Part shown: piece after piece, positions 29,147-42,363 of the stretch
How positions within the stretch are numbered: the stretch's first letter is position 1
Layout of the letters: each line of letters opens with the position of its first letter
Assembly: GCA_022790685.1 (NCBI GenBank)
Contig: JAAVXQ010000039.1
Location: 1-42,363 of the forward strand
Length of the DNA: 42,363 bases
Direction of reading: 5' to 3'
From: Clostridia bacterium
GTDB lineage: Bacteria; Bacillota; Clostridia; TANB77; CAG-508
Made by a program: the position numbers and the translations under genes
Notes under the pieces: generated by a model
The model's input: only the letters and a program-made list of their open reading frames with translations
The model's database searches: none
Told to the model about the DNA's origin: nothing

Positions 29147-29752
29147 ATGTTAAACAATATTAAAATTAGCCAAACTACAGAAGAAATAATATTAAATGTT
29201 AATGTTATAGCAGATATGCAAGACATATTAGCTGAATTAGAAACAAAAATACCAAAGCTTAGAGATTTTTATCAATCTTCTAAAATACCGATTAGAGTTA
29301 AAGGTAAATTATTTACAGAAACAGAAATGGAAATGATAAAAAAAGTAATTAATTCAGAAATCGATGTAGAAATAAAATTTGATGATGTGTCAGATTTACT
29401 AGGGCTACATGCAATAAAGAAAACTTTTGAAACAAATACTGAAATATCTGAAACTAAATTTATACAAAATTCTATAAGATCAGGACAAAAGGAAGAATAT
29501 ACGGGAAGTTTAGTAATATGTGGAGATGTAAATGCAGGTGCCGAAATAATAGCTGGTGGAAATATAATAATAGTAGGAACTTTAAGAGGGCTTGCACATG
29601 CAGGAGCAAATGGAAATAAAAAAGCTATAATCTCAGCAAACTCTATAGATATAACTCAAGTTAGAATAGCTAATCTTGTAAAGGAAGTTGGAGAAAAAAT
29701 AGATAAATGTCCGATATGTAAAATAGATGTAAATGAAATTGTAATATCATAA
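29147..29752 (+). CDS. minC: Septum site-determining protein MinC
   Basis: C-terminal beta-helix motif GDVNAGAEIIAGGNIIIVGTLRGLAHAG. Confidence 0.85.
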   Translation: MLNNIKISQTTEEIILNVNVIADMQDILAELETKIPKLRDFYQSSKIPIRVKGKLFTETEMEMIKKVINSEIDVEIKFDDVSDLLGLHAIKKTFETNTEISETKFIQNSIRSGQKEEYTGSLVICGDVNAGAEIIAGGNIIIVGTLRGLAHAGANGNKKAIISANSIDITQVRIANLVKEVGEKIDKCPICKIDVNEIVIS

Positions 29753-29760
29753 AAGAGATA

Positions 29761-29788
29761 AAAACCATTCAATTTGAATGGTTTTTTT
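29761..29788. terminator. Bidirectional hairpin terminator between minC and the convergent gene
   Basis: AAAACCATTCAA/TTGAATGGTTTT palindrome with T runs on both strands. Confidence 0.7.
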
Positions 29789-29811
29789 ATACTTATGTAT
29801 ATTTAAGTATG

Positions 29812-30198
29812 CTATAAGATAAGTAGAACAAGAATGATTATTAGTATAAAGTCATAATCAGAGTTTTTAAAACTTTGAAAATTATTCATAGATTCTAGAG
29901 CAGTTAAAAGATTAGCAATCTTTACGTACTGCTCTAATTTTTCCTTTTTTGTATTCTCAAGATAAGGTTTTAAAGAATATAGAAGCTTATTTCTAGGAGA
30001 ATCTTTACTTTTGTTCATAGCAGTAAAGATATCTTTCATTTTTAATATAGTATCCATATCAAAAGAAAAATCGGAATTATTACTTTCTTCCGCATTTTCA
30101 CTATTATCAGAATTATTCATTATATTATTTAAATCTATATTTTTTTCTTTTAAAATATCTGAAAATTTATTTAAAACCTCTGAGAAATCTTCATTCAT
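29812..30198 (-). CDS. Hypothetical protein
   Basis: 128-aa product with an acidic Asn/Ser-rich N-terminal half and a hydrophobic C-terminus (FILIIILVLLIL). SD TGAGG. No family recognised. Confidence 0.5.
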   Translation of the reverse strand: MNEDFSEVLNKFSDILKEKNIDLNNIMNNSDNSENAEESNNSDFSFDMDTILKMKDIFTAMNKSKDSPRNKLLYSLKPYLENTKKEKLEQYVKIANLLTALESMNNFQSFKNSDYDFILIIILVLLIL

Positions 30199-30209
30199 TC
30201 TTTAAAACC

Positions 30210-30348
30210 TCATTTATTATTTTCTAAATTTTTTTTAATATCAGAATTCTCCAATATTTGTTGTGCTTTGTAGATGTTTTTTTCTAATTCTTCTTTATCC
30301 ATTTTAGAAATAACAGACAAAAGTTTATTAATATCCATGTTATTCAAT
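30210..30348 (-). pseudogene. Possible small ORF (~45 aa) broken by a +1 frameshift in a C run
   Basis: GGAGG SD 9 nt before TTG 30348. The frame reads (M)NNMDINKLLSVISKMG then stops. After dropping one C of 30299-30301 it continues DKEELEKNIYKAQQILENSDIKKNLENNK to TGA 30212-30210. Confidence 0.3.
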
Positions 30349-30497
30349 AGAAAATACCTCCTTTAGAAATACTTTGTATTATTAGTATATGAAAGGTAAA
30401 GAAAAAAGTTGACAATATAAAATATATTAAAAAAAACAATACAAAAGTCACAGATATTTAAATATATGCAATAAAAATAAAAATAGCACTCAGAAAG

Positions 30498-30526
30498 TTT
30501 ACATAAAAACAAAAAAGTGATATAAT
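30498..30526 (+). promoter_or_regulatory. Putative strong sigma-70-type promoter for the giant surface-protein genes
   Basis: TTTACA 30498-30503, 17-nt spacer ending in TGA (an extended -10 TG), TATAAT 30521-30526. Confidence 0.55.
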
Positions 30527-30789
30527 AATATTATGGATAAGTGCGCCTATTTTCCACAAACGGTATAAAAAAAGTGGATAACTACACATAAACAAAAATG
30601 TAATGAAAACTTAATAAAATAAAAAAGGACATCGAAAGGTAGAATTTCCGTAAAAAAGTTTAATTAAAAACTCTGTAACAATTGAAAATAGAGGAACTTT
30701 ACCTATGTACAAAGAAAAATAATTGTCGTATATTATTATATATAATATAAAAATAGGTCGTATTATGTCTAAAACTAAAGAAAAGGAGT

Positions 30790-33700
30790 ATGGAGAAAAT
30801 GGAAACAAAGTTAAGAAAAGTCTTAATATTAATAATTATTTTCATGATGATGTTTTCAAATTTTGGATTTACCATAAAAGCAATAGCTACATCAGATGAA
30901 TTCCAAGTAATTTCAAATGGATTTTTCAGAAAAGACGAAGTAAAATTTTCTGGATATTTTGAAAACGAAGATGGAAAGCAAACAAATGAAGTAATTAATA
31001 ATGCAAAACAAAGAGCAATTCTAAAATTTAATATTAAGCCTCAAGTAGAAGGGTATTTGAAAAACGCAAATATAAAGGCAGTAGCCACAGATGGCACTGA
31101 CTTAAATTTTAGATTTGTGTCTGCTAAAAACATGCTTGATGAAATAAATCAAGAAGAAGAGAAAGAAGATACACAGTTTGAAGTGAAAAATGAAAATAAA
31201 GATTTATCAGAAATTTCTGCTATGAACGAAATAGAAAATACAAGTTTAGAAAATTCTGTAAATGAAAATCAAGCATCAAATGTAATAAATGAGATTTCAA
31301 ATGATGCAAATGAAATATCAAACAGTGTATCAAAGGAATTAAATTCTAATACGGTGGAAAACAGTATTGCAAATGAGATAAGCAACAATACTGTTTCTAA
31401 TGATGTGCCTTTAGAAGAGGAAGAAGAATTTATAGATGAAGAGGAATATATAAAACAAGAACAAGAGACAGAAACAGAAGTAGAAAAAGAAAAACTAGTT
31501 TCTGATGTTAAACTTGTTAATGATAATGAAATTAGTCTTGTAAATATTCTAGAAGATACAACTTTAGAAGTAGTAATAGAATTTAATCAAAAAGACGAAA
31601 TAAATATAGCAGACTTATACAAAGAGATAAGCTTTAGATTAACAGGTACATATATAAATGTAAAGTTAGAAGAAGTTGATATAGCAAAAGAACAACTAAT
31701 GAACATTGGTTGGAAATATAGTAAAGATATCGAAGTTACAAGTGAATATACAAAATTTTCTCCATTTAAAATAGGTGAAGTAACAGGTATAATTGCTGAA
31801 AATAAAATAGTACTTGCAAGAAATATAGAAGATAGTAAATATTTACCTATAAAAAATACAAATATAGAAATAATGGTTCCTACAGTTAATGGAAAAATGC
31901 CAATGAGTGTAGATGTACAAGCCACAAAGTTGATGGCAACAAAAGGACAAGATAGTGGATATGTAGAATTTACAAATAACAATTGGACATATGATCAAAA
32001 TGAAGGAAAGATTATTATAAATGTAAATAATGACATAGATGGAAAAGCAAAAAATTCTTTAGGTGAAGACGAATACGTTATTATATATAGATTTGATGAA
32101 TATACAGAAAATGAAACTGTTAGATTAGATAGAAATGTAAAAGTAACAGTAGAAGAATATAGTGCAAAAGAAAATAGCATATTAGAAAAAACAATTGATG
32201 ATAATGTAGAAATACAAACTAATAAAGGTGAATTAATAACATATAGTATTAGCTCATCAGAAGAAAAAATAAATAAAGCTAAAATATATGCAAATTATAA
32301 CTCACCTGATGCACCATATGAAACAGAATATACAAGTAATATAAGATTAAATGTACTTACAAGTGACATGCTAGAGGAACTAAAAATAGATAGTTCAAAA
32401 GAATATTTTATAGATAAGAATGGAACAGAGCTTGAGGCTTCAGGAATTAAATACAAGAAAATGACATTTAACTATAATGATATAAAATCAACATTAGAAA
32501 AAGGTGGAGCAGTAGAAATATATTCATTAGAGGGAGCACTTATATATACACTAACAAAAGATTTAGTAAAATCACAAGATGATTGTACAATAAATATGAA
32601 TAATGAACCAGGAGTTATTATACAAGTAAGAGATGTATCAGCTAATGGAAAAATAGATGTAGAAATAACAAAAGCAATAGGAAGACCAGAAATAGACAAA
32701 TCAATATTTGCAAACTTTAGAAGAATAGAAAGCAGAATTACAGCAGAAGTAAAATATGCAAATATAGAAGAAAGATTAACACTTCCACTAATAGGAACAT
32801 CAAAAGAATTTGAAGAAAGTTATACAAAAGCTACATTAAGTATAAACAAACCAAATTTAACAACAATGCAAGAAAATGAGAATGTAGAGCTTAAAATAGA
32901 ACTTAACAATGATAGTCAAAAAAGTGACTTATATGTTAATCCAACATTTGAACTTGTTTATCCAAAACATATAAAAGAAGTTGAACTTGAAAGTATAAAT
33001 GTAATATATGATAGTGGTTTAACAGTAAAACATTTTGAAACATATAGAGATGGTGAAAACTTAAAAACAAGAATAGAGCTAGATGGAATTCAAACAAGCT
33101 TTATAGAAAACTCAATGACAAATGGTACAAATATAATTTTAAATACAAGAATGAAAATAGATGAATATACACCAAGAAAAGAAGATCAAATTAAACTTTA
33201 TTACTATAATGAAGGTGTAAGTAATTATCAAACACAAACAATGTGGAAAGTAAATAAAACTATTCCAAATAATATTTTAAAACAAACAAATGGATTTGAT
33301 GTAGCATTAATTAATTATCAAGCACCAGTTGGATTAATTGCTATAAATGGAATGAGAAATTATGATGGTGAAGGTTCAGAATTAAGATCTGTAAAACAAG
33401 GAACAATGACAAGACAAATCCAAAGAGAAAGAGCAGAAGTAAATACAACAATGGATTTATTAGTTCTTAACAATACAGGAAATGAATGCTCAGACATAAC
33501 AATGCTTGGAAGAGTACCTTTTAAAGGAAATAAAGATGTAATAACAGGAGAGAACTTAGGAACTAATATAGATGTAAGATTAGTAGGTTCTATTCAAGAA
33601 GACAGTGAAAATTCAGCTAAAGCAACAATATACTATTCAGCAAAAGCTGATGCAAATAAGAATTTAAATGATTCATCAAATGGATGGACAACAGATGTTC

Positions 33701-36585
33701 AAGATATGAGCAAAGTAAAATCTTATTTAATAGTAGTTGATGGAAAAGTTGAACCAGGAGCTTTCTTAAAATATACTTATGGATTTGTAATTCCAGAAAA
33801 TCTACCATATGAAGGAAAAATTGTAGGAAGCTTTGGAGCATATTATAACAATATAACAGATGTGGCTGTAGTGTATGAGAGTATGAATGCTGACAAAACT
33901 GTATTAGAAACAGAAAAAGGAGCTAAATTAGAAGCAAGATTAAATGTTGATATAGGTGATGGAGCAGATATACTAGAAGAAAGAAGAATGATGTATACAG
34001 TTACAGTAATAAATTCAGGAAGTGTTCCTATATCAGATATAACAATAACAAATCCAGTACCTAGATATACATACTATACAGAAAAAGGACCTGTAAGATA
34101 TGGTGATTATGGCTTTGAAGTTAAGGATGAAAAAGAAATAAAAGAAACAGGTATTACATTAGAGCCAGGAGCAACAAAAGAAATGACATATTACTTAACA
34201 GCTCAAAAAATACCAAATTTATCATCATATTGTGCAAGTATGGGAAATTCTGGTGAAGATGAAAATGGTGTGTATTATGAAAAAGTAGTTGGAACAGAAA
34301 TAGAAAAAATACCAAATACATATGTTGATGAAAATGGAGTTGAACATACAGAATATCAAGAAGTAATAAAAGATAAAATTGAAAAAGTGTATGTTTCAGA
34401 AGTGCCAGATGTGTATATAGAAAATAAAGCAACAATAGAAACACCACTTATAGCAGATAAAATAGAGACAAATACTGTAAGAAATAGAATGAAAAAAGCT
34501 AACTTTAGTTCAAGTTTAGCAATAGATTATGATAGACTTCTAGTTAAAGGTAGTGTAACAAATTATCAATTAACATTAAGAAATATATCAGGTAGAGATT
34601 TAGAAAATGCACAGGCTATATTTAATATAGGAGAAGGATTAGTTTTTGTAAAGGGAGAAGTACAAGGCACTGATATTACAGCAGATTACAATCAAGAAAC
34701 ACATAAAATATCATATGATATTGGTAAACTAGATAAAGATAGTTCTGTAACTATTAGTACAGAAGTACAAACAATTTCAGTAGATGAAGGAAGAAAGCAA
34801 ATAAATTGCTATTTTGAATTAAAAGCAGATGATGTTGCTACTGAATATAGTACAGTAATACCTCAATATATTGTAAAACCAAAATTATCTGTAGAAGACA
34901 TGACAGCAATTAAAAATACATATGGAGAAGAAGAGGTATTTACAGTAACTACAAAGATTACAAATGTTGGAGCAGATAGTTGTAAAAATGCAACTATTGA
35001 ATGTGAAATACCAAATGCAGTAACAATAAGAAGTGTAAAAGTTTCAGGAGATTCTAATGGAACTTTAGATGCCAATATTTCAACAGGAAAATTAGAATCA
35101 AAATTACCACTAATACCACCAGATAGAAGTATTATAGTGGATATAAACTTTAAAACACAAAACTTAGCAGGTTCAGATCCATCAAAAGTTATATTAACAA
35201 GAATTATAAAAAATGAAAATCAAACAGATATAAAAATAAATCCAGTAGAATTAACTGTAGAGAACAACTTAAAAACTATGGAAGAAAAAGAAAAAGAAAG
35301 AGAAGAAGAAAGAAAGCAAGAAGAAGAAAAAAATAAAGAAGATAAAAAAGATCAAACAGATAATACACAAAATAATAACCAAAATACAAATAATTCAAAT
35401 AATAATAACTCAAACAATAACTCAAATAATAATAACTCAAACAATAACTCAAATAATAATAGTACAAATAACAATTCAAATAATAATAATAATAACACAA
35501 ATAATAACAACTCAAATAATAATACACCTACAGTTCAAGAAGAAAAAACATATATGATAAAAGGTGTAGCATGGCTTGATAAAAATGCAGATGGAGTAAA
35601 AGACGAAAATGAAGAGAAACTAAAAAATATAAAAGTATATTTATTAGATGCTAAAACAAATGCAATGATAAAATCTGCAATGACAAATTCAAATGGAGAA
35701 TATCAATTCAGTGACTTAAAAAATGGAAGATATATTGTTGGCTTTGAATTTGATATGGATAAATATAAAATAACGAGCTATAAGAAATCAGGAGTTTCTG
35801 AAGAATTAAATTCGGATGTAACTGAAGCAGCAAATGCTAGAGGAACAAAAGAATCAATAAAAGCTGTAACAAATGAAATTACTATAAATAATGCAGATGT
35901 ATCAAATGTAAATATAGGATTAAAAGATGCAAAACAGTTTGATATAGAAATAAATAAATATTTATCAAAAGCAACAGTAATAAACAAAAAAGAGACAAAA
36001 GAATACAAATATGACAAAGCAGATATAGCTAAATTAGAAATACATTCAAAACAAATAAATAATTCAACAGTAAAATTAGAGTATGATATTGTTGTTAAAA
36101 ACATTGGAAATCTTGAAGGAACAGTACAAAAAATAGTAGATAGTTTTAGCTCAGATGTTGAATTTGACGAAAAAGATAATAAAGACTGGTATAAAGGAAA
36201 TGACGGAAAGATTTATAGTAAAAACCAAGATGGATTAACTTTAAAGCCGGGTGAAGAGAAAATACTAAAACTTGTAGTTACAAAGAAATTAGATGGAAAC
36301 AGCACAGGTTCATTAAGTAATAAAGCAATTTTAGAGCAAACAAATAGTAGTTCGGGTGAAGAAGAAGAGACAAAAAATAATACAAGCACACAAATTACAA
36401 TTATAACAGTTTCTACAGGTGGAAGAACAATAACAACAATTTTAATAGCAATTTTTGGAATAGCAGTTATAGGATTTATGTATATAAGTCCAAAAGTAAA
36501 TATAAACCTAGGTGATATAGGTAAGAAAAGTTATAAAGCTAAAAAAGAAACACTAAAGAAAAAATTAAAGAAAATTTATAAATAA
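30790..36585 (+). CDS. Giant (1931-aa) secreted, C-terminally anchored surface protein with DUF11/CARDB-like repeats, an Asn-rich spacer and an SdrD-B-like domain
   Basis: Features in order:
- signal peptide (KVLILIIIFMMMFSNFGFTIKAIA);
- acidic low-complexity region;
- DUF11-like segments (MMYTVTVINSGSVPISDITITNPVP; VTNYQLTLRNISGRDL; EVFTVTTKITNVGADS);
- NNNSNNNS spacer;
- SdrD-B-like GVAWLDKNADGVKDENEEKLKNIKVYLLD...NGEYQFSDLKNGRY;
- C-terminal TVSTGG, then TM (ITTILIAIFGIAVIGFMYI), then a Lys-rich tail.
The likely true start is ATG 30799, which has better SD spacing. Confidence 0.85.
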   Translation: MEKMETKLRKVLILIIIFMMMFSNFGFTIKAIATSDEFQVISNGFFRKDEVKFSGYFENEDGKQTNEVINNAKQRAILKFNIKPQVEGYLKNANIKAVATDGTDLNFRFVSAKNMLDEINQEEEKEDTQFEVKNENKDLSEISAMNEIENTSLENSVNENQASNVINEISNDANEISNSVSKELNSNTVENSIANEISNNTVSNDVPLEEEEEFIDEEEYIKQEQETETEVEKEKLVSDVKLVNDNEISLVNILEDTTLEVVIEFNQKDEINIADLYKEISFRLTGTYINVKLEEVDIAKEQLMNIGWKYSKDIEVTSEYTKFSPFKIGEVTGIIAENKIVLARNIEDSKYLPIKNTNIEIMVPTVNGKMPMSVDVQATKLMATKGQDSGYVEFTNNNWTYDQNEGKIIINVNNDIDGKAKNSLGEDEYVIIYRFDEYTENETVRLDRNVKVTVEEYSAKENSILEKTIDDNVEIQTNKGELITYSISSSEEKINKAKIYANYNSPDAPYETEYTSNIRLNVLTSDMLEELKIDSSKEYFIDKNGTELEASGIKYKKMTFNYNDIKSTLEKGGAVEIYSLEGALIYTLTKDLVKSQDDCTINMNNEPGVIIQVRDVSANGKIDVEITKAIGRPEIDKSIFANFRRIESRITAEVKYANIEERLTLPLIGTSKEFEESYTKATLSINKPNLTTMQENENVELKIELNNDSQKSDLYVNPTFELVYPKHIKEVELESINVIYDSGLTVKHFETYRDGENLKTRIELDGIQTSFIENSMTNGTNIILNTRMKIDEYTPRKEDQIKLYYYNEGVSNYQTQTMWKVNKTIPNNILKQTNGFDVALINYQAPVGLIAINGMRNYDGEGSELRSVKQGTMTRQIQRERAEVNTTMDLLVLNNTGNECSDITMLGRVPFKGNKDVITGENLGTNIDVRLVGSIQEDSENSAKATIYYSAKADANKNLNDSSNGWTTDVQDMSKVKSYLIVVDGKVEPGAFLKYTYGFVIPENLPYEGKIVGSFGAYYNNITDVAVVYESMNADKTVLETEKGAKLEARLNVDIGDGADILEERRMMYTVTVINSGSVPISDITITNPVPRYTYYTEKGPVRYGDYGFEVKDEKEIKETGITLEPGATKEMTYYLTAQKIPNLSSYCASMGNSGEDENGVYYEKVVGTEIEKIPNTYVDENGVEHTEYQEVIKDKIEKVYVSEVPDVYIENKATIETPLIADKIETNTVRNRMKKANFSSSLAIDYDRLLVKGSVTNYQLTLRNISGRDLENAQAIFNIGEGLVFVKGEVQGTDITADYNQETHKISYDIGKLDKDSSVTISTEVQTISVDEGRKQINCYFELKADDVATEYSTVIPQYIVKPKLSVEDMTAIKNTYGEEEVFTVTTKITNVGADSCKNATIECEIPNAVTIRSVKVSGDSNGTLDANISTGKLESKLPLIPPDRSIIVDINFKTQNLAGSDPSKVILTRIIKNENQTDIKINPVELTVENNLKTMEEKEKEREEERKQEEEKNKEDKKDQTDNTQNNNQNTNNSNNNNSNNNSNNNNSNNNSNNNSTNNNSNNNNNNTNNNNSNNNTPTVQEEKTYMIKGVAWLDKNADGVKDENEEKLKNIKVYLLDAKTNAMIKSAMTNSNGEYQFSDLKNGRYIVGFEFDMDKYKITSYKKSGVSEELNSDVTEAANARGTKESIKAVTNEITINNADVSNVNIGLKDAKQFDIEINKYLSKATVINKKETKEYKYDKADIAKLEIHSKQINNSTVKLEYDIVVKNIGNLEGTVQKIVDSFSSDVEFDEKDNKDWYKGNDGKIYSKNQDGLTLKPGEEKILKLVVTKKLDGNSTGSLSNKAILEQTNSSSGEEEETKNNTSTQITIITVSTGGRTITTILIAIFGIAVIGFMYISPKVNINLGDIGKKSYKAKKETLKKKLKKIYK
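35401..35454 (+). repeat. Perfect tandem duplication of a 27-nt unit within the Asn/Ser-rich low-complexity spacer (about 35380-35525)
   Basis: AATAATAACTCAAACAATAACTCAAAT at 35401-35427 is repeated exactly at 35428-35454, in frame. Confidence 0.9.
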
Positions 36586-36597
36586 GGGGGTGAGAAT

Positions 36598-39500
36598 ATG
36601 AAACAAAAATTAATGAAAAAGATATTAATATTAACAATGACATTAATAAGTGTTGTAGGAATAGGATATACAATTAAAACATTAGCAACTGTACAGATAG
36701 GAGTATTTAATGCTGGATATAATGAAGCAGTTGTTGGAGAGCCTATTAAAATGACAATAACTCAAGAATATTCTCACTTAAGAGAACCAGATAAAAATAT
36801 AGTACCTAATCCAATAAGAAGTTTTCCAGTAAATAAAAATGTGTTTAATACAAGTCAAGATTACTTCTGTATACAACATGGTGTACCTTATGCAATAGCG
36901 GCAAATGGACAACAATCTAAAGGAACAGCTGGACAATATCTTTCTGATTCTGGAATTCAATATATTTCAGGAGAGGGATTAAGAAATGGTAAATTAGATA
37001 ATTATAATAATCCAGATGGAATTGGTTATGGAAACTATCATACAGGAGCATTTGATATAAGTTCTGATATAAAAATAAATGAAGATCCTTCTTTGTCATA
37101 TGATAGTAGAACAGCGAATACAACAGCACTTACTAATAAAGGTTTTCAAGGATATAGAGAAGATGAACCAGCAGAAACTCCTGTTGATACAGTATATTCA
37201 AATTATGTATATAAAACTAAAAAGTTTGAATTTGGATGTATTGAAAAATCAGGAGATCATTGTGAAAGAAAAGTAGAAGTACCAGAAACATTTAATTCAA
37301 CTCAAGGTGATGAAGGATTTGATGAAGGATTAGCATTTTTATTAGCCAGATATAAAATAACTCCAAGAGGCTCATATTCAAACGATCCTTTACAACATGC
37401 TGTATGGGCTACATTAGGACAATATAGTGGTGGAGAAGCTTATATTAAAGATTATGTACTAAAAGAAGCGAGAGAAAGCTTTGATAAATATCATAAAGAA
37501 GCAACAGAAAAGATGGTAGATGTAATACCAAGTGATGATGTTGGCACAGTATTATCAAATGGTAATTATGTAGTTGGACCATTTAAAATGAATGATTATA
37601 TTAGAGCAGAAGATTATAATTATACAGTAGGTGGTTCAATACATTCAAGTTATTTACCAGGAGACGAAGGAGAAGATGATGAAACAATAGATATTGATAT
37701 GCCAAAAACTCAGGAAAACTTACAAAAAATATTTTATAGGACTGATTCTAATAATCCAACAAGTATTACAGAAAAGAAAGAATTATATGGTGGTATATTA
37801 AGAGCTTGGGTTGTATTTAATGATGGAAGTATATATGAATTTGCAAAATGGGAAGATAAAAATGTTCCTGCACCAGGTAAAGAATTTAAAATAGAAATAC
37901 CAACATCAGCAGTTAATGATGGAGCAGATGAAATTATAGATATAGTATTTGAATATCAAATAATTCATGCATATGGTGAAGGTGAAACATATATAGGTAG
38001 ACAAATAAGAGTTAGTTGGAATAAAAAGCAAGATACAAGTGGAGGATGCACAGAATATAAAACAAACTATCCTGGAGAAACAGGTTTATGTTCTTATCAT
38101 GGGGTTAATGCAGGACCATTTACAAGTACTACAGGAGGATGGCAAGATACTACTCATAACCATATTCATGATTGCGATGATTTCTATCATGGACATGGAT
38201 GTGCAGGGGGACACTATAGTTCTTCTTGCCATGCTTGTAATTGTACAGGACATGGAACAGGTCCTGATAAAACATATTGCTCTTGTTCTGGTCATAAAAA
38301 GGCAGGATGCCATTGTTCGTGTCCAGGACATACATGTTCACATACTAAAAATATGTTATTCTTATGCGATCATAAACATGTTAAATGTCAAATGTTTGAT
38401 TGGCAAGCAAATAATATTTCATATGATGCATGTCAAGATGGTGCAACATTACAAGGAAAGCTTTCAAATGAAATTGTAGAATATTCAATAAAAGTAAATG
38501 TGCCATTAAAAACAGATATGTCTATATATAAATATATTAGTAAAGTAGAACATAATGATATAGCAGAGCATAAAACTTGTAACCATACATATAATGGTGG
38601 AACAGAAAGAAGAGATTGGGAAATTGCAGTAAAAGAAGCAGACCCAGTAAAAGTTGAAAGAGGAGATATTGTAACATATACAATTGAACTTGTAAATAAT
38701 TCAAAATTTCCAACCGAAGTTCTGGTGCAAGATACTCTGCCAGATGATATATTAGATGAAGATAGAAGTGACATTAGAATAAGATGGCATTATGAAACAG
38801 TTGCAAATGACTGGATTACAATACAACCATATAGTACAGAAACTTTTGAAGTAACAGTAGTTGTAGACTCAATGTCAGGAAAGTATGTAAACTCAGTTGA
38901 ATTTGTATCAACAAATGATAAAGAACCACATATGAGATATGAACATTGGGGAGATGGGGCAACACATGGACCACACGAACATGGTTGGATAGTAAACATC
39001 AACAATAAAATACAAGATGAAGATTGGTATGAAGTAAAAGAATATAAAGTAAATATTGACAAATATATTTCTGATGTAGAACATACAGAAGTAAAATCTT
39101 CATATGATTCTACAATGCCAGAAAGTGATGCTAGATCAAAATTCAATATGAGTGAAAGTGATAAACAAAAAGCACCAGTATATGTTGAATATGGTGATAT
39201 AGTTACATATACAATAAAAATATATAATACAACAAATAAGTATGATAGCTCATTTGATAGAACAAAAGCCCCACACTGGGAACCAGAAGTTGTATATGTA
39301 GATATTGAAGACACTTTACCAGTAAACTGTATATTACAATCAATAGATGTAGATGATACATATACACAAAGAGAAGCAACAAATGAACATGTATACTTAG
39401 ATGATGTTAGAGTTGAAGAAGATGCAGTTACAACAATAACAATAAAAGTAATGGTAAATGATGTAAAAAGAACAACAGTAAGAGAAAATAATGTAATAAT

Positions 39501-42363
39501 ACTAAATGATAAAATTGAAAATATAAACAGAGAAATAATCCTAAATCATACAGATAAAGACGATACAAGTGATTGGTATAAATTAAATGATTATGACATA
39601 GATATTGACAAATATATAAGTGCATATAATGGTTCTATGATGAAAGAAAACAATAGAATAGGATTCACAGAAAATGAAACATCAACAATAGATGATAAAG
39701 GATTTACAAATACTGGAGCAACAAATCAAGCAGATAGAGAAGATTTAGACAGAGTTGATTTGACAGATGCATACAAAAAAGATTATCCAGTAGAAGTTGA
39801 AAAAACAGAAGAAGTTATTTACTCTATAAAATTAGAAAATCATAAAACCAAATTAGGAAGTCAAGATGCAGTAGCAACAGGTTCACAACCAGGCACACAA
39901 GTTAGACCAACAAAGATAACTGATACTTTACAAACAGGTTTAGAGTTCCAAGAAGTAAAAGGCGTAAAATATGAAGCTGATGGAACTAAAGTAGCAGATG
40001 TACAAGTAACAGCAACACCAATAGGAAATAATACATATGAATTTACAATAGGAAATGGAAACGAAACAATATTAGATCCTGGACAATTTATGGTTTACTA
40101 TGTAAGAGTTAAAATAACAGAAAGCAATATGTATTTATTAACACTAGAAAATTCAGCAGTTATAACAACACTAACAAATATAAATCATAATCCAGATATA
40201 GAGGAAAGAATTGTAAAAGACCCAGATAATCCAAATATTGATGAGAATATCTCTCCTCAAAAAGAATCAAAAGAATATGTAAAACTAAAAGAGTTAATAA
40301 TGGCAGGTAAAGTATTCTTAGATGCAGATAAAAATGGATATATGGAAACAGAAAATGATAAAAACAGATTTAATAATATAACAGTTAAATTGTATAGAAG
40401 AGATGGAGATGGAACAGCAAAACAAGTAGGAGAGAAAAAGACAGGAACTAATAAATTAGGAGAAAACGGTTTCTATACATTTGAAAGAGTTGACAAAGCA
40501 GATGATAAACAACATGCAACAAAAGTTAATGACTACTATGAAAAAGATGGCGTATATACAGCAAACAGTAAACTTTATGAATATTATATAGAATTTGAAT
40601 ATGATGGTGTAGCATATAAAGCAACAGAAGTATATGGAGGAAGAACAGAAGATGTTAATCCAAACTTTGGAGATAATAATATAACAGAAAAATGGCTTCC
40701 AACAGACCCTGATGCAGAAAAATATATCACAGATTCAAATGCATATGAATTTACAGATATAAGAGATGCATTTAATAGAAATTATGAGACAATAGGATAT
40801 AACAAGGCATATAAATCAGGAGAAGATACAAATAATAAGACTGAAACTGCAGCTCTAACATACACAAAGAAAGGCCATACATCACTATTAGATGTTGTTG
40901 AAGCTCCAAATGCACAAAATCATCCAGAAAGAGTAATGACATCAAGAACCTTTATAAAGAAAGAAGTTGTACCAGTAGATGGAGAACCATCAAGCTTTAA
41001 AGATAAAGGAATAGAACAAGACCTAGGATATCCTGGAAGTTTAGGCTATGGTAAAAATTTAGGAAATACAAAAACTTTATGGCTATATAAACAAGGAGCA
41101 GACTATAAATTACCAGAAACAGAATATTTAAAATATATGAACTTAGGTTTAGTTGAAAGAGAAGATGTTAATATATCACTTGTAAAAGATGTATACTCAG
41201 TAACAACAACAGTAAATGGTGAGCAGATAACATATGACTATAATAAAAACGGTGTAAAGAATAATGAAATATTAATAAAAGGAAATGCACCTGTAACATC
41301 AGAAGAAGCACAAGGAGCGACAGGAACAGAATTTAATGAATCAAATGGAAAATATATTGACAATCAAAAATATGGCTTAGAATTATATGAATCAGATTAT
41401 TACTATAGAGTTGAGCAATATGAGCATCAAGCAGTAAGAGATTATAAAACAATATACAGTGAACTTAATATTGAAGTAACATTTAGAATTACAATAACAA
41501 ATGAAGAAATTATACAAGATGAATTAAACATGAGAGATGTTGATAGAGAAGTTATTGTAACTATAGATGAAATTGCAGATTACTATGATGAAAACTTTGT
41601 TGAATATACAGATAACATTGAATCAGCATACAAAGCAAAACTTGGAACACCAAATGAAGATTCAGATTATAAATATATGACACAAGAAGAGGCTGATACT
41701 TTAGATGATTCTGTAGCAGTTAAAATAAAAGTAAAAGTACCGGATGAGGAAAATATTGCAAGAGATCCAGGTTCAACAAAATTAATAGACAGAAAGCTAG
41801 AAGTTGTAAAAGCATGGTACTATAAAGATGGAACAACAAATCCAACAGGATTAATTGTAACAAATAAATCAAACTATAATCCAGAACGTGTAAGTAAAAA
41901 TGGAGAGGCAGATGGATATAGAAAACTATATATTAGAGGCTTTAATAAAGTTCAACTACATGAAGGAGAAAGCATAGATTTATATGTAAAATATATAGTG
42001 GATAAAGAAGCAGCTGGAAATATTTTAAGTATGACATCAGGTGATTCAAGAAACTTAAAAATAGCAGAAAGATTAACAAAAGGTGAATTTGGTAGAGGAC
42101 AAGAAGGAATTGCAGAAATAAGTGCATACTCTACTTGGTATCAAGAATATGATACAACAAAGAGTCCAGCAACAAATAAAGGAAATGAACTAAAACCAGC
42201 AGGACTTGTTGACAGAAATTCAAATCCAGATAACTTAGGGGATGACAATTCAGGAGCAGAGGTATCTGTAGACGAAATAGGATTCTATGAAGATGATACA
42301 TATAAAACAGGTATAGAAATGACAGTTCCTAAACCAGAAAATCCACCAAATAAACCAAATCCA
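36598..42363 (+). CDS. Second giant secreted protein (at least 1922 aa, 3' end outside the window): thioester-domain adhesin-like head, Cys/His-rich module, three ~180-aa repeat modules and an SdrD-B-like domain
   Basis: Not in the ORF track. GGGGG SD lies 7 nt before ATG 36598. I read every codon to 42363 without a stop. Signal peptide MKQKLMKKILILTMTLISVVGIGYTIKTLA. The motifs are detailed in the findings. Confidence 0.85.
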   Translation, partial: MKQKLMKKILILTMTLISVVGIGYTIKTLATVQIGVFNAGYNEAVVGEPIKMTITQEYSHLREPDKNIVPNPIRSFPVNKNVFNTSQDYFCIQHGVPYAIAANGQQSKGTAGQYLSDSGIQYISGEGLRNGKLDNYNNPDGIGYGNYHTGAFDISSDIKINEDPSLSYDSRTANTTALTNKGFQGYREDEPAETPVDTVYSNYVYKTKKFEFGCIEKSGDHCERKVEVPETFNSTQGDEGFDEGLAFLLARYKITPRGSYSNDPLQHAVWATLGQYSGGEAYIKDYVLKEARESFDKYHKEATEKMVDVIPSDDVGTVLSNGNYVVGPFKMNDYIRAEDYNYTVGGSIHSSYLPGDEGEDDETIDIDMPKTQENLQKIFYRTDSNNPTSITEKKELYGGILRAWVVFNDGSIYEFAKWEDKNVPAPGKEFKIEIPTSAVNDGADEIIDIVFEYQIIHAYGEGETYIGRQIRVSWNKKQDTSGGCTEYKTNYPGETGLCSYHGVNAGPFTSTTGGWQDTTHNHIHDCDDFYHGHGCAGGHYSSSCHACNCTGHGTGPDKTYCSCSGHKKAGCHCSCPGHTCSHTKNMLFLCDHKHVKCQMFDWQANNISYDACQDGATLQGKLSNEIVEYSIKVNVPLKTDMSIYKYISKVEHNDIAEHKTCNHTYNGGTERRDWEIAVKEADPVKVERGDIVTYTIELVNNSKFPTEVLVQDTLPDDILDEDRSDIRIRWHYETVANDWITIQPYSTETFEVTVVVDSMSGKYVNSVEFVSTNDKEPHMRYEHWGDGATHGPHEHGWIVNINNKIQDEDWYEVKEYKVNIDKYISDVEHTEVKSSYDSTMPESDARSKFNMSESDKQKAPVYVEYGDIVTYTIKIYNTTNKYDSSFDRTKAPHWEPEVVYVDIEDTLPVNCILQSIDVDDTYTQREATNEHVYLDDVRVEEDAVTTITIKVMVNDVKRTTVRENNVIILNDKIENINREIILNHTDKDDTSDWYKLNDYDIDIDKYISAYNGSMMKENNRIGFTENETSTIDDKGFTNTGATNQADREDLDRVDLTDAYKKDYPVEVEKTEEVIYSIKLENHKTKLGSQDAVATGSQPGTQVRPTKITDTLQTGLEFQEVKGVKYEADGTKVADVQVTATPIGNNTYEFTIGNGNETILDPGQFMVYYVRVKITESNMYLLTLENSAVITTLTNINHNPDIEERIVKDPDNPNIDENISPQKESKEYVKLKELIMAGKVFLDADKNGYMETENDKNRFNNITVKLYRRDGDGTAKQVGEKKTGTNKLGENGFYTFERVDKADDKQHATKVNDYYEKDGVYTANSKLYEYYIEFEYDGVAYKATEVYGGRTEDVNPNFGDNNITEKWLPTDPDAEKYITDSNAYEFTDIRDAFNRNYETIGYNKAYKSGEDTNNKTETAALTYTKKGHTSLLDVVEAPNAQNHPERVMTSRTFIKKEVVPVDGEPSSFKDKGIEQDLGYPGSLGYGKNLGNTKTLWLYKQGADYKLPETEYLKYMNLGLVEREDVNISLVKDVYSVTTTVNGEQITYDYNKNGVKNNEILIKGNAPVTSEEAQGATGTEFNESNGKYIDNQKYGLELYESDYYYRVEQYEHQAVRDYKTIYSELNIEVTFRITITNEEIIQDELNMRDVDREVIVTIDEIADYYDENFVEYTDNIESAYKAKLGTPNEDSDYKYMTQEEADTLDDSVAVKIKVKVPDEENIARDPGSTKLIDRKLEVVKAWYYKDGTTNPTGLIVTNKSNYNPERVSKNGEADGYRKLYIRGFNKVQLHEGESIDLYVKYIVDKEAAGNILSMTSGDSRNLKIAERLTKGEFGRGQEGIAEISAYSTWYQEYDTTKSPATNKGNELKPAGLVDRNSNPDNLGDDNSGAEVSVDEIGFYEDDTYKTGIEMTVPKPENPPNKPNP
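36850..37410 (+). other. Putative Cys-Gln thioester domain (TED/TQXA-like) of the second giant protein
   Basis: DYFCIQHG (Cys91, TGT 36868-36870) and DPLQHAVWATLG (Gln266, CAA 37393-37395) fit the two conserved TED motifs with appropriate spacing. Confidence 0.6.
38047..38433 (+). other. Cys/His-rich module: 16 Cys and 15 His in 129 residues
   Basis: Counted codon by codon. It includes three C-x-C-x-G-H motifs (CNCTGH, CSCSGH, CSCPGH). Confidence 0.9.
40300..40755 (+). other. SdrD-B-like domain in the second giant protein
   Basis: AGKVFLDADKNGYMETENDKNRFNNITVKLYRRDGDG...GENGFYTFERV...YYIEFEYDGVAYKATEVY...TDSNAYEF. Confidence 0.6.

Follow-up and report, generated by a model that had tools for sequence, protein, structure and literature searches.

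A Cys/His-rich insert with an interior exchanged among relatives in a giant fibrillar adhesin of uncultured gut Clostridia

In architecture, the closest described relatives of the protein reported here are fibrillar adhesins with CLIPPER domains, the latter being CnaA-like isopeptide domains of the stalk (PMC12617251). We analyzed a stretch of 42,363 nucleotides from a Clostridia bacterium (assembly GCA_022790685.1, contig JAAVXQ010000039.1, positions 1 to 42,363 of the forward strand), called the window below. It contains the 5' part of a gene for an adhesin of this kind and, within this giant open reading frame (ORF), a Cys/His-rich module. The main property of the module, a hypervariable interior that recombines as a cassette, is not visible from one sequence. 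Similar to the CLIPPER adhesins, the protein has a predicted signal peptide, an N-terminal head and a tandem Ig-like stalk, and its homologues end in an apparent sorting signal. Unlike in those adhesins, the first CLIPPER domain bears an additional loop, about 30 residues long and rich in His, and the Cys/His cassette together with its host β-sandwich matches none of the domains listed as co-occurring with CLIPPER. As a fibrillar adhesin with a CLIPPER stalk, the protein is of a known kind; its new part is the Cys/His module.

Three further comparisons are relevant. The head carries short motifs in the same order as the thioester domains (TEDs) of TIE proteins, so that a putative reactive head would sit on a putatively cross-linked stalk as it does there (PMC4450167). 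In contrast to TIE proteins, the head has no database match to a TED and is modeled at low confidence, and one group of homologues does not have the candidate Gln. We know of no TED with a Cys/His-rich neighbor. The module itself resembles metallothionein-like and zinc-knuckle sites and the tails of SlyD type in its CxC, CxxC, HxH and CxH knuckles and in having no hydrophobic core; the structure of such sites is poorly predicted when the metal is left out. It differs from them in its apparently extracellular location, in its placement in an Ig-like domain, in being hypervariable and in having no sequence or profile match. Finally, as in the hypervariable region of M proteins and the variable regions of Neisseria PorA and Opa, a short block with sharp breakpoints holds nearly all of the divergence, and its alleles are common to several lineages. 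To our knowledge, those regions are neither Cys/His-rich nor thought to be metal-scaffolded, whereas the module is rich in both residues and keeps its composition and a conserved clamp while its sequence varies.

The insert and its family

The frame of the giant ORF is preceded by a stop at 36585 and starts at ATG 36598 (MKQKLMKKILILTMTLISVVGIGYTIKTLA; MKQKLMKK...). The original prediction, made from the sequence of the window, had reported a module of 16 Cys and 15 His in 129 residues and few Cys elsewhere. Translation confirms both statements, as the other 1793 residues contain 5 Cys and 28 His. By the hypergeometric test the enrichment has a p-value of 1e-15 for Cys and 3e-8 for His, and both survive correction for about 1800 window positions. 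The peptide quoted at the time is the translation of 38047-38433 apart from two leading Gly (residues 482-483), which precede this interval. The motif C-x-C-x-G-H does occur three times, at residues 547, 561 and 573; we looked for a tandem DNA repeat beneath the three copies and found none. The G+C content near the module peaks at 0.37-0.38, compared to 0.27 for the window, and this local rise had been proposed to create spurious ORFs. The three ORFs that overlap the module (38039-38479 on the forward strand, 38086-38331 and 38150-38341 on the reverse strand) are indeed out of frame or antisense, encode low-complexity peptides and look spurious.

No relatives came from word-indexed protein searches, whether the query was the module, the first 700 residues or a 7-sequence alignment. 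When 1.84 billion representative proteins were searched exhaustively with phmmer, six true relatives (P0001-P0006) of 2378-2860 residues emerged, all from metagenome assemblies, which match the giant ORF at residues ~360-670; a seventh match, P0007, was rejected as a spurious repeat protein. A scan of GTDB genomes with the single protein found nothing, whereas an alignment-based DNA scan of the same genomes found nine loci, all in metagenome-assembled genomes (MAGs) of uncultured gut Clostridia from water-deer caecum, chicken (Ca. Scatovivens faecipullorum), human and mouse. A metagenome scan added ten more loci. Additional Cys/His-rich windows on the minus strand of two loci (L012 and L020) were rejected as antisense low-complexity artefacts. 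In total there are about 20 homologues, and every carrier is an uncultured gut Clostridia MAG or a metagenome. No homologue was found in a scan of viral contigs, and hence there is no link to phages.

In the alignment, all homologues carry a Cys/His-rich insert at one and the same position. These inserts span 75-175 residues and contain 7-18 Cys and 4-15 His (15-24% Cys+His) with few hydrophobic residues, the interior being rich in Gly, Ser, Thr and Asp and nearly devoid of a hydrophobic core. Among 21 modules only Y487, C590, H592 and C597 are invariant; C498, H520, C526 and C535 (codons 38089-38091, 38155-38157, 38173-38175 and 38200-38202, respectively) are kept in at least 90% of them. The conserved Cys and His form a clamp at the base of the insert. 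Its C-terminal part has H or Y at position 594 and W or M at position 602, and the signature of the family is H-x5-C...C before the variable interior and C-x-H-x-[HY]-x-x-C-x4-W after it. Within one allele type, the identity at Cys/His positions is 50-96%, as opposed to 26-69% at other residues. The original prediction had named poor conservation of the Cys/His positions among homologues as evidence against a genuine module, and this is half of what was found: about eight positions at the base of the insert are kept throughout the family, and those of the interior are kept not across the family but within a single allele type, where they are conserved far better than other residues.

The spacing of Cys/His pairs in the 21 modules also departs from that of shuffled sequences, with an excess at i+2 (z=+5.5) and i+4 (z=+5.3) and a deficit at i+1 (z=-7.2). 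With such a period of two, the candidate ligands would line one face of extended segments.

The suggestion that the domain is undescribed holds. Pfam and NCBIfam searches of the giant ORF gave no family match on the module, and neither did a PDB sequence search with the module or PDB profile searches with profiles of 19 N-terminal regions and of the 21 modules. The module of the window has no Pfam match at E<=10. At the same threshold the 21 modules gave four single, non-recurrent weak matches, among them zf-RING_5 at 0.023 and EGF-like and AZUL at E>5. By the profile scan of the 21 modules and the PDB profile search, the modules match none of the known Zn-finger, metallothionein or Cys-rich Pfam families. 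Foldseek with both AlphaFold2 (AF2) models returned nothing at E<=0.001 and only generic Ig-like matches above this value, and the literature search yielded no account of a Cys/His module like this one.

The AF2 calculation, run on an alignment of seven sequences, gave no usable model of the module: residues 467-615 have a predicted local distance difference test (pLDDT) score below 50, with block means of mostly ~21-35. On both sides of it, block means are much higher, mostly 70-90 over residues 401-460 (70-89 for the most part) and 621-650. Judged by these confidently predicted flanking strands, the module would be a long excursion from a β-sandwich formed by residues ~398-477 and 603-655. 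The N-terminal strands contain a region, ..DIxFTYQxIHAxGxGT.Y.G.Q.., that can be aligned across homologues, and on the C-terminal side V633, V635, L637, T639, I643, K645, Y646, I647 and H652 are invariant in 19 homologues. In line with the original proposal, the module lies between the N-terminal head and the repeat stalk.

Exchange of the interior

In a single cluster at 90% identity, three alleles (P0008, P0009/P0015 and P0017) have modules so different that they look unrelated. Compared pairwise, P0008, P0009 and P0017 share 97-100% identity in the head, 31-35% in the module and 99-100% over the ~220 residues that follow it. The DNA alignment of P0008 with P0009 has 219 differing columns over 8.6 kb, and 197 of them fall in columns 1300-1800. 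The block that diverges is ~340 bp long; it starts just past the first conserved Cys codon (GGATGTAC) and stops at the clamp codons (TGTGAACAT), and the 3-kb flanks on either side contain only 1-12 nucleotide differences. P0008 and P0009 were each found on eight contigs and P0017 on one. The loci L009 (chicken) and L010 (human) repeat this behavior, being 93% identical overall and 20-50% in the module, with the loss of five interior Cys, and L012 and L015 show the same cassette pattern. Conversely, similar modules are found in dissimilar proteins. The module of the window is 48% identical to that of the P0001 allele, with backbones that are only 21-31% identical, and the modules of P0017 and L018 are 42% identical on backbones of 22-32%. 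Hence, in relatives of the window's adhesin the interior is exchanged as a cassette between otherwise near-identical genes.

The simplest reading of these alignments is that old, divergent alleles replace one another by homologous recombination via the conserved flanks, and such replacement would imply that an exposed surface has long been under diversifying or balancing selection. A diversity-generating retroelement was considered and rejected: the alleles differ at all four bases and contain many indels, which is not the outcome of its mutagenesis, no repeat of the module that could serve as a template is present in the window at 29500-42363, and there is no reverse transcriptase domain among the neighbors listed. 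An invertase, a shufflon or local silent cassettes are likewise unsupported in the window, where no inverted or direct repeats flank the module.

The same data bear on the possibility that the insert is a neutral, disordered low-complexity spacer whose composition has drifted and whose variability reflects a lack of constraint, an idea that we consider improbable. It would account for the pLDDT of ~25-35, for the high variability in length and sequence and for the lack of a family match. A spacer of this sort is not expected, however, to keep the clamp invariant on backbones only 20-40% identical, to show the same compositional constraint in 21 diverged alleles, to have a non-random period-2 Cys/His pattern or to retain Cys and His preferentially within allele types. 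Furthermore, sharp breakpoints and identical flanks argue for recombination between old alleles rather than local drift.

Two side observations concern variability and gene copies. A second, far smaller variable patch is located in the head (nucleotides 301-360 of the gene in L004/L026/L027; residues ~100-120 of P0008/P0017), where otherwise identical alleles read either KTDHNGSYDMD or TTDHDTNIYGKSYDMD. Contig AUXO015519719.1 contains two paralogous adhesin genes, L018 and L025, within ~10 kb, each with its own Cys/His module, and the clamp of L025 is identical to that of L021. Tandem paralogues of this kind could act as donors for cassette exchange.

What may hold the insert together

We give a nearly even chance to the reading that the module is a metal-stabilized hypervariable loop, serving recognition or acting as an antigen, in a giant fibrillar adhesin. 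Its Cys and His side chains would bind metal ions, Zn(II) being the likeliest, and the metal would hold a loop that has no core in a defined shape. The clamp would tie both ends of the loop together at the β-sandwich, and the CxC, HxH and CxH knuckles of the interior would stiffen it. The variable interior would then be an exposed surface beside the adhesive head, under diversifying selection and replaced as a cassette through the conserved flanks. Most likely, it would set or vary the target that the tip of the adhesin recognizes, or else what recognizes the adhesin, for example an antibody or a phage. The metal binding put forward in the original prediction suits the composition, with its roughly equal Cys and His enrichment, few hydrophobic residues and period-2 spacing, and it is from these features that we infer it. 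The low pLDDT between confident strands is also compatible with a fold that needs a cofactor, which AF2 does not model.

A disulfide-knotted hypervariable loop, resembling a cystine knot or an EGF-like domain and with His either incidental or sensing pH, would explain the same variability, and we regard it as unlikely. We favor metal over disulfides on several grounds: the equal enrichment of Cys and His, which are interleaved in the same i/i+2 pattern, knuckles on one face, the missing hydrophobic core, odd numbers of Cys in many modules (15, 13, 11, 17, 7, 9), the failure of AF2 inside confident flanks and hosts that are gut anaerobes, a setting in which extracellular thiols tend to stay reduced. 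In addition, CxC pairs are sterically poor disulfide partners and classic metal ligands. Still, the location is Cys-rich and would be extracellular, one of the 21 modules has a very weak EGF-like Pfam match (E=5.7), and the solved CLIPPER domain itself contains a CTTC disulfide (PMC12617251), all of which speak for disulfides.

Bound metal could alternatively be the purpose of the module and not its scaffold. Extracellular scavenging, storage or buffering of Zn, Ni or Cu, in the manner of pneumococcal histidine-triad (Pht) proteins or the SlyD tail, would be in line with the high ligand density and with a composition like that of His/Cys/Gly/Asp-rich metal-binding tails. Scavenging was one of the functions offered in the original prediction, and it fares poorly here: there is a single module per wall-anchored protein of 2000-3300 residues, the neighboring genes code for giant surface proteins and for cell-shape and division proteins with no transporter among them, some alleles have lost most of their interior Cys, and neither hypervariability nor cassette exchange is expected of a simple chelator. 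The Pht motif HxxHxH is missing from the module of the window and from 18 of the 21 modules. We therefore hold scavenging to be quite unlikely. A histidine-triad reading in the strict sense was rejected, as HxxHxH occurs just once in each of three modules, and a c-type cytochrome or haem reading was rejected as well, since the window's module has no CxxCH and only two of the 21 contain it, once each.

A redox or oxygen switch, in which thiolate-metal sites release their metal upon oxidation near the epithelium and thus alter the conformation or activity of the adhesin tip, appears very improbable. The abundance of thiolate ligands in an anaerobe's extracellular protein, in a module that adjoins the head, would fit it; nothing supports it specifically, however, and a sensor would be expected to be conserved and not hypervariable.

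Several points weigh against a metal-stabilized recognition loop. A confident three-dimensional model of the module is absent, and metal binding is, as stated, something that we infer; exposure and the recognition role are drawn solely from hypervariability and position. The number of Cys+His per module varies from 15 to 31 and two loci (L010 and L011) have lost most of the interior Cys, which means that interior ligands, if such they are, would be individually dispensable. BLOSUM62 alignments favor C-C and H-H matches, and the contrast between Cys/His and other positions within allele types is therefore somewhat inflated. The spacing and conservation statistics come from related sequences. 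Lastly, cassette swapping was seen in relatives and not in the window's own genome, because an alternative allele is unavailable for its species.

A more far-reaching version of the metal-stabilized loop is possible, although we consider it doubtful. It holds that the module represents an undescribed kind, a metal-scaffolded hypervariable cassette whose clamp codons act both as a structural anchor and as homology arms. Its use in gut Clostridia would be to direct the tip of a covalent adhesin, possibly thioester-armed, to new targets, to vary that tip antigenically or to tell kin from non-kin, and old allele classes, common to several genera, would be kept by balancing selection.

The host adhesin, its locus and implications

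The coordinates of the features are collected in the table below.

Table 1. Features of the adhesin gene and of the gene upstream of it, in coordinates of the window
Feature	Position	Strand	Evidence
Upstream partner gene, 1931-residue surface protein	30790..36585	+	SdrD_B domain, Asn-rich tract, C-terminal transmembrane anchor
Giant secreted fibrillar-adhesin gene, 5' part	36598..42363	+	Frame open from ATG 36598 to the end of the window without a stop; 1922 codons
Putative Sec-type signal peptide, residues 1-30 (...TIKTLA)	36598..36687	+	Basic n-region, hydrophobic core, TLA, read from sequence
Head region with thioester-domain-like motifs YFC91IQ, LQ266HAVW270, NLQ376KIF	36868..37725	+	Motif fit and conservation
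Predicted N-terminal strands of host β-sandwich, residues 398-477	37789..38028	+	AF2 strands 400-407, 412-417, 429-435, 445-477
Cys/His-rich module, residues 484-612	38047..38433	+	Translation equals the 129-residue peptide; composition count
Hypervariable cassette interior, residues 485-589	38050..38364	+	Segment exchanged in homologues; AF2 pLDDT ~25-35; includes near-invariant C498, H520, C526 and C535
Conserved clamp C590-D-H592-K-H594-V-K-C597-Q-M-F-D-W602	38365..38403	+	Alignment of 21 modules
Predicted C-terminal strands of host β-sandwich, residues 603-655 (..VNVPLKTDMSIYKYISKVEH)	38404..38562	+	AF2 strands 601-611, 615-636, 641-651
First CLIPPER (DUF11) stalk domain, putative isopeptide triad K679/D712/N800	38629..39042	+	PF01345, TIGR01451
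Second His cluster HMRYEHWGDGATHGPHEHGW, residues 778-797	38929..38988	+	Inserted loop directly preceding the strand with Asn800 in CLIPPER domain 1

Residues 2-36, which include the putative signal peptide, are helical in the AF2 model. TEDs are recognized by a Cys motif [YFL]C-Φ-ζ, a central TQxx-Φ-W helix and a Gln motif Φ-Q-ζ-Φ-Φ (PMC4450167). The head motifs fit these three in order, but they are short and a chance match is possible. Among 19 homologues, C91 is kept in at least 90% and Q266 and W270 are invariant; LQ376KIF is found only in the subgroup of the window, the candidate thioester Gln being missing from the P0001 group. AF2 places three helices between β regions in the head, in a model of low confidence (pLDDT below 50 at residues 55-208 and 341-397) for which Foldseek gave no match at E<=0.001. 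No Pfam match to the TED family (PF08341) was obtained at E<=1 in any of the 19 homologues, and the PDB profile search was empty, too. We take a TED, or a divergent thioester-type domain, as a lead only, which the short motifs provide.

The sole part of the giant ORF that matches a known family is residues 678-777, assigned to DUF11/CLIPPER. The PF01345 score is 26.4 bits (cut-off 24.6) with an 830-residue fragment and a borderline 24.5 on the whole ORF; that of TIGR01451 is 34.6 against a cut-off of 24. K679, D712 and N800 (codons 38632-38634, 38731-38733 and 38995-38997) are invariant in 19 homologues, and Lys and Asp are 33 residues apart, as are K715 and D748 of the solved CLIPPER domain (PDB 9IFR; PMC12617251). 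The invariant triad and the equal spacing suggest that an isopeptide bond may form within the domain. As originally described, there is a second His cluster, albeit at the coordinates given in the table and not at 38926-38985. Its pattern, WG..(A/S)THG.H..G.IVN, is kept in the subgroup of the window and P0002-P0005 and not in the P0001 group.

Where one stalk domain gives way to the next, the DNA contains direct repeats (39022-39068 and 39571-39617; 38523-38554 and 39054-39085), with the motif DWY.(V/L)K(E/D)Y..(N/D)IDKYI...VEH, which indicates a stalk of diverged tandem units. The homologues are 2378-3334 residues long, and the thirteen full-length ones end in [IV]TL[TAV]PP[TQ]G, a transmembrane helix and a basic tail; in P0001-P0005, P0027 and L008-L015, a spacer of ~20 residues follows the motif and the tail is KKRRYK or KRRIK. 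Judged by its sequence, this ending is a sortase-like sorting signal, unlike the canonical LPXTG. It is reminiscent of the (S/P)PXTG type.

The genes upstream in the window are, in order, radC, mreB, mreC, mreD, a PBP2-type transpeptidase gene and minC, followed by a small reverse ORF, the gene of the 1931-residue surface protein and, 12 nucleotides later (gap 36586-36597), the adhesin gene. In the region 29147-30790, a terminator-like hairpin (29743-29803) comes after minC and precedes the reverse ORF (29812-30198), and the low-complexity Asn-rich tract of the 1931-residue protein is encoded at 35341-35549. Thus, giant adhesin genes and not minD/minE come after minC, and in two homologous loci adhesin genes also follow minC directly. 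The two loci that show upstream genes are syntenic (mreD, PBP2, minC, protein A of 1890-1933 residues and protein B with the insert), and a third has the A-then-B pair among other giant surface-protein genes. The retention of this pair in homologous loci suggests an operon, possibly for a two-protein surface structure.

Hardly any work exists on giant adhesins from uncultured gut Clostridia. In this family, a block of ~340 bp concentrates nearly all of the strain-level variation of an 8.6-kb gene and always stays Cys/His-rich, and the head may be a divergent thioester-type domain that current profiles miss. If metal binding and recognition are true, the module would represent a new variable-loop structure, in which metal replaces a hydrophobic core or disulfides, and it would offer a small natural scaffold for variable-loop engineering. 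It would also be a marker of strain-level selection in commensals by host immunoglobulin A, by phage or by competition for ligands.

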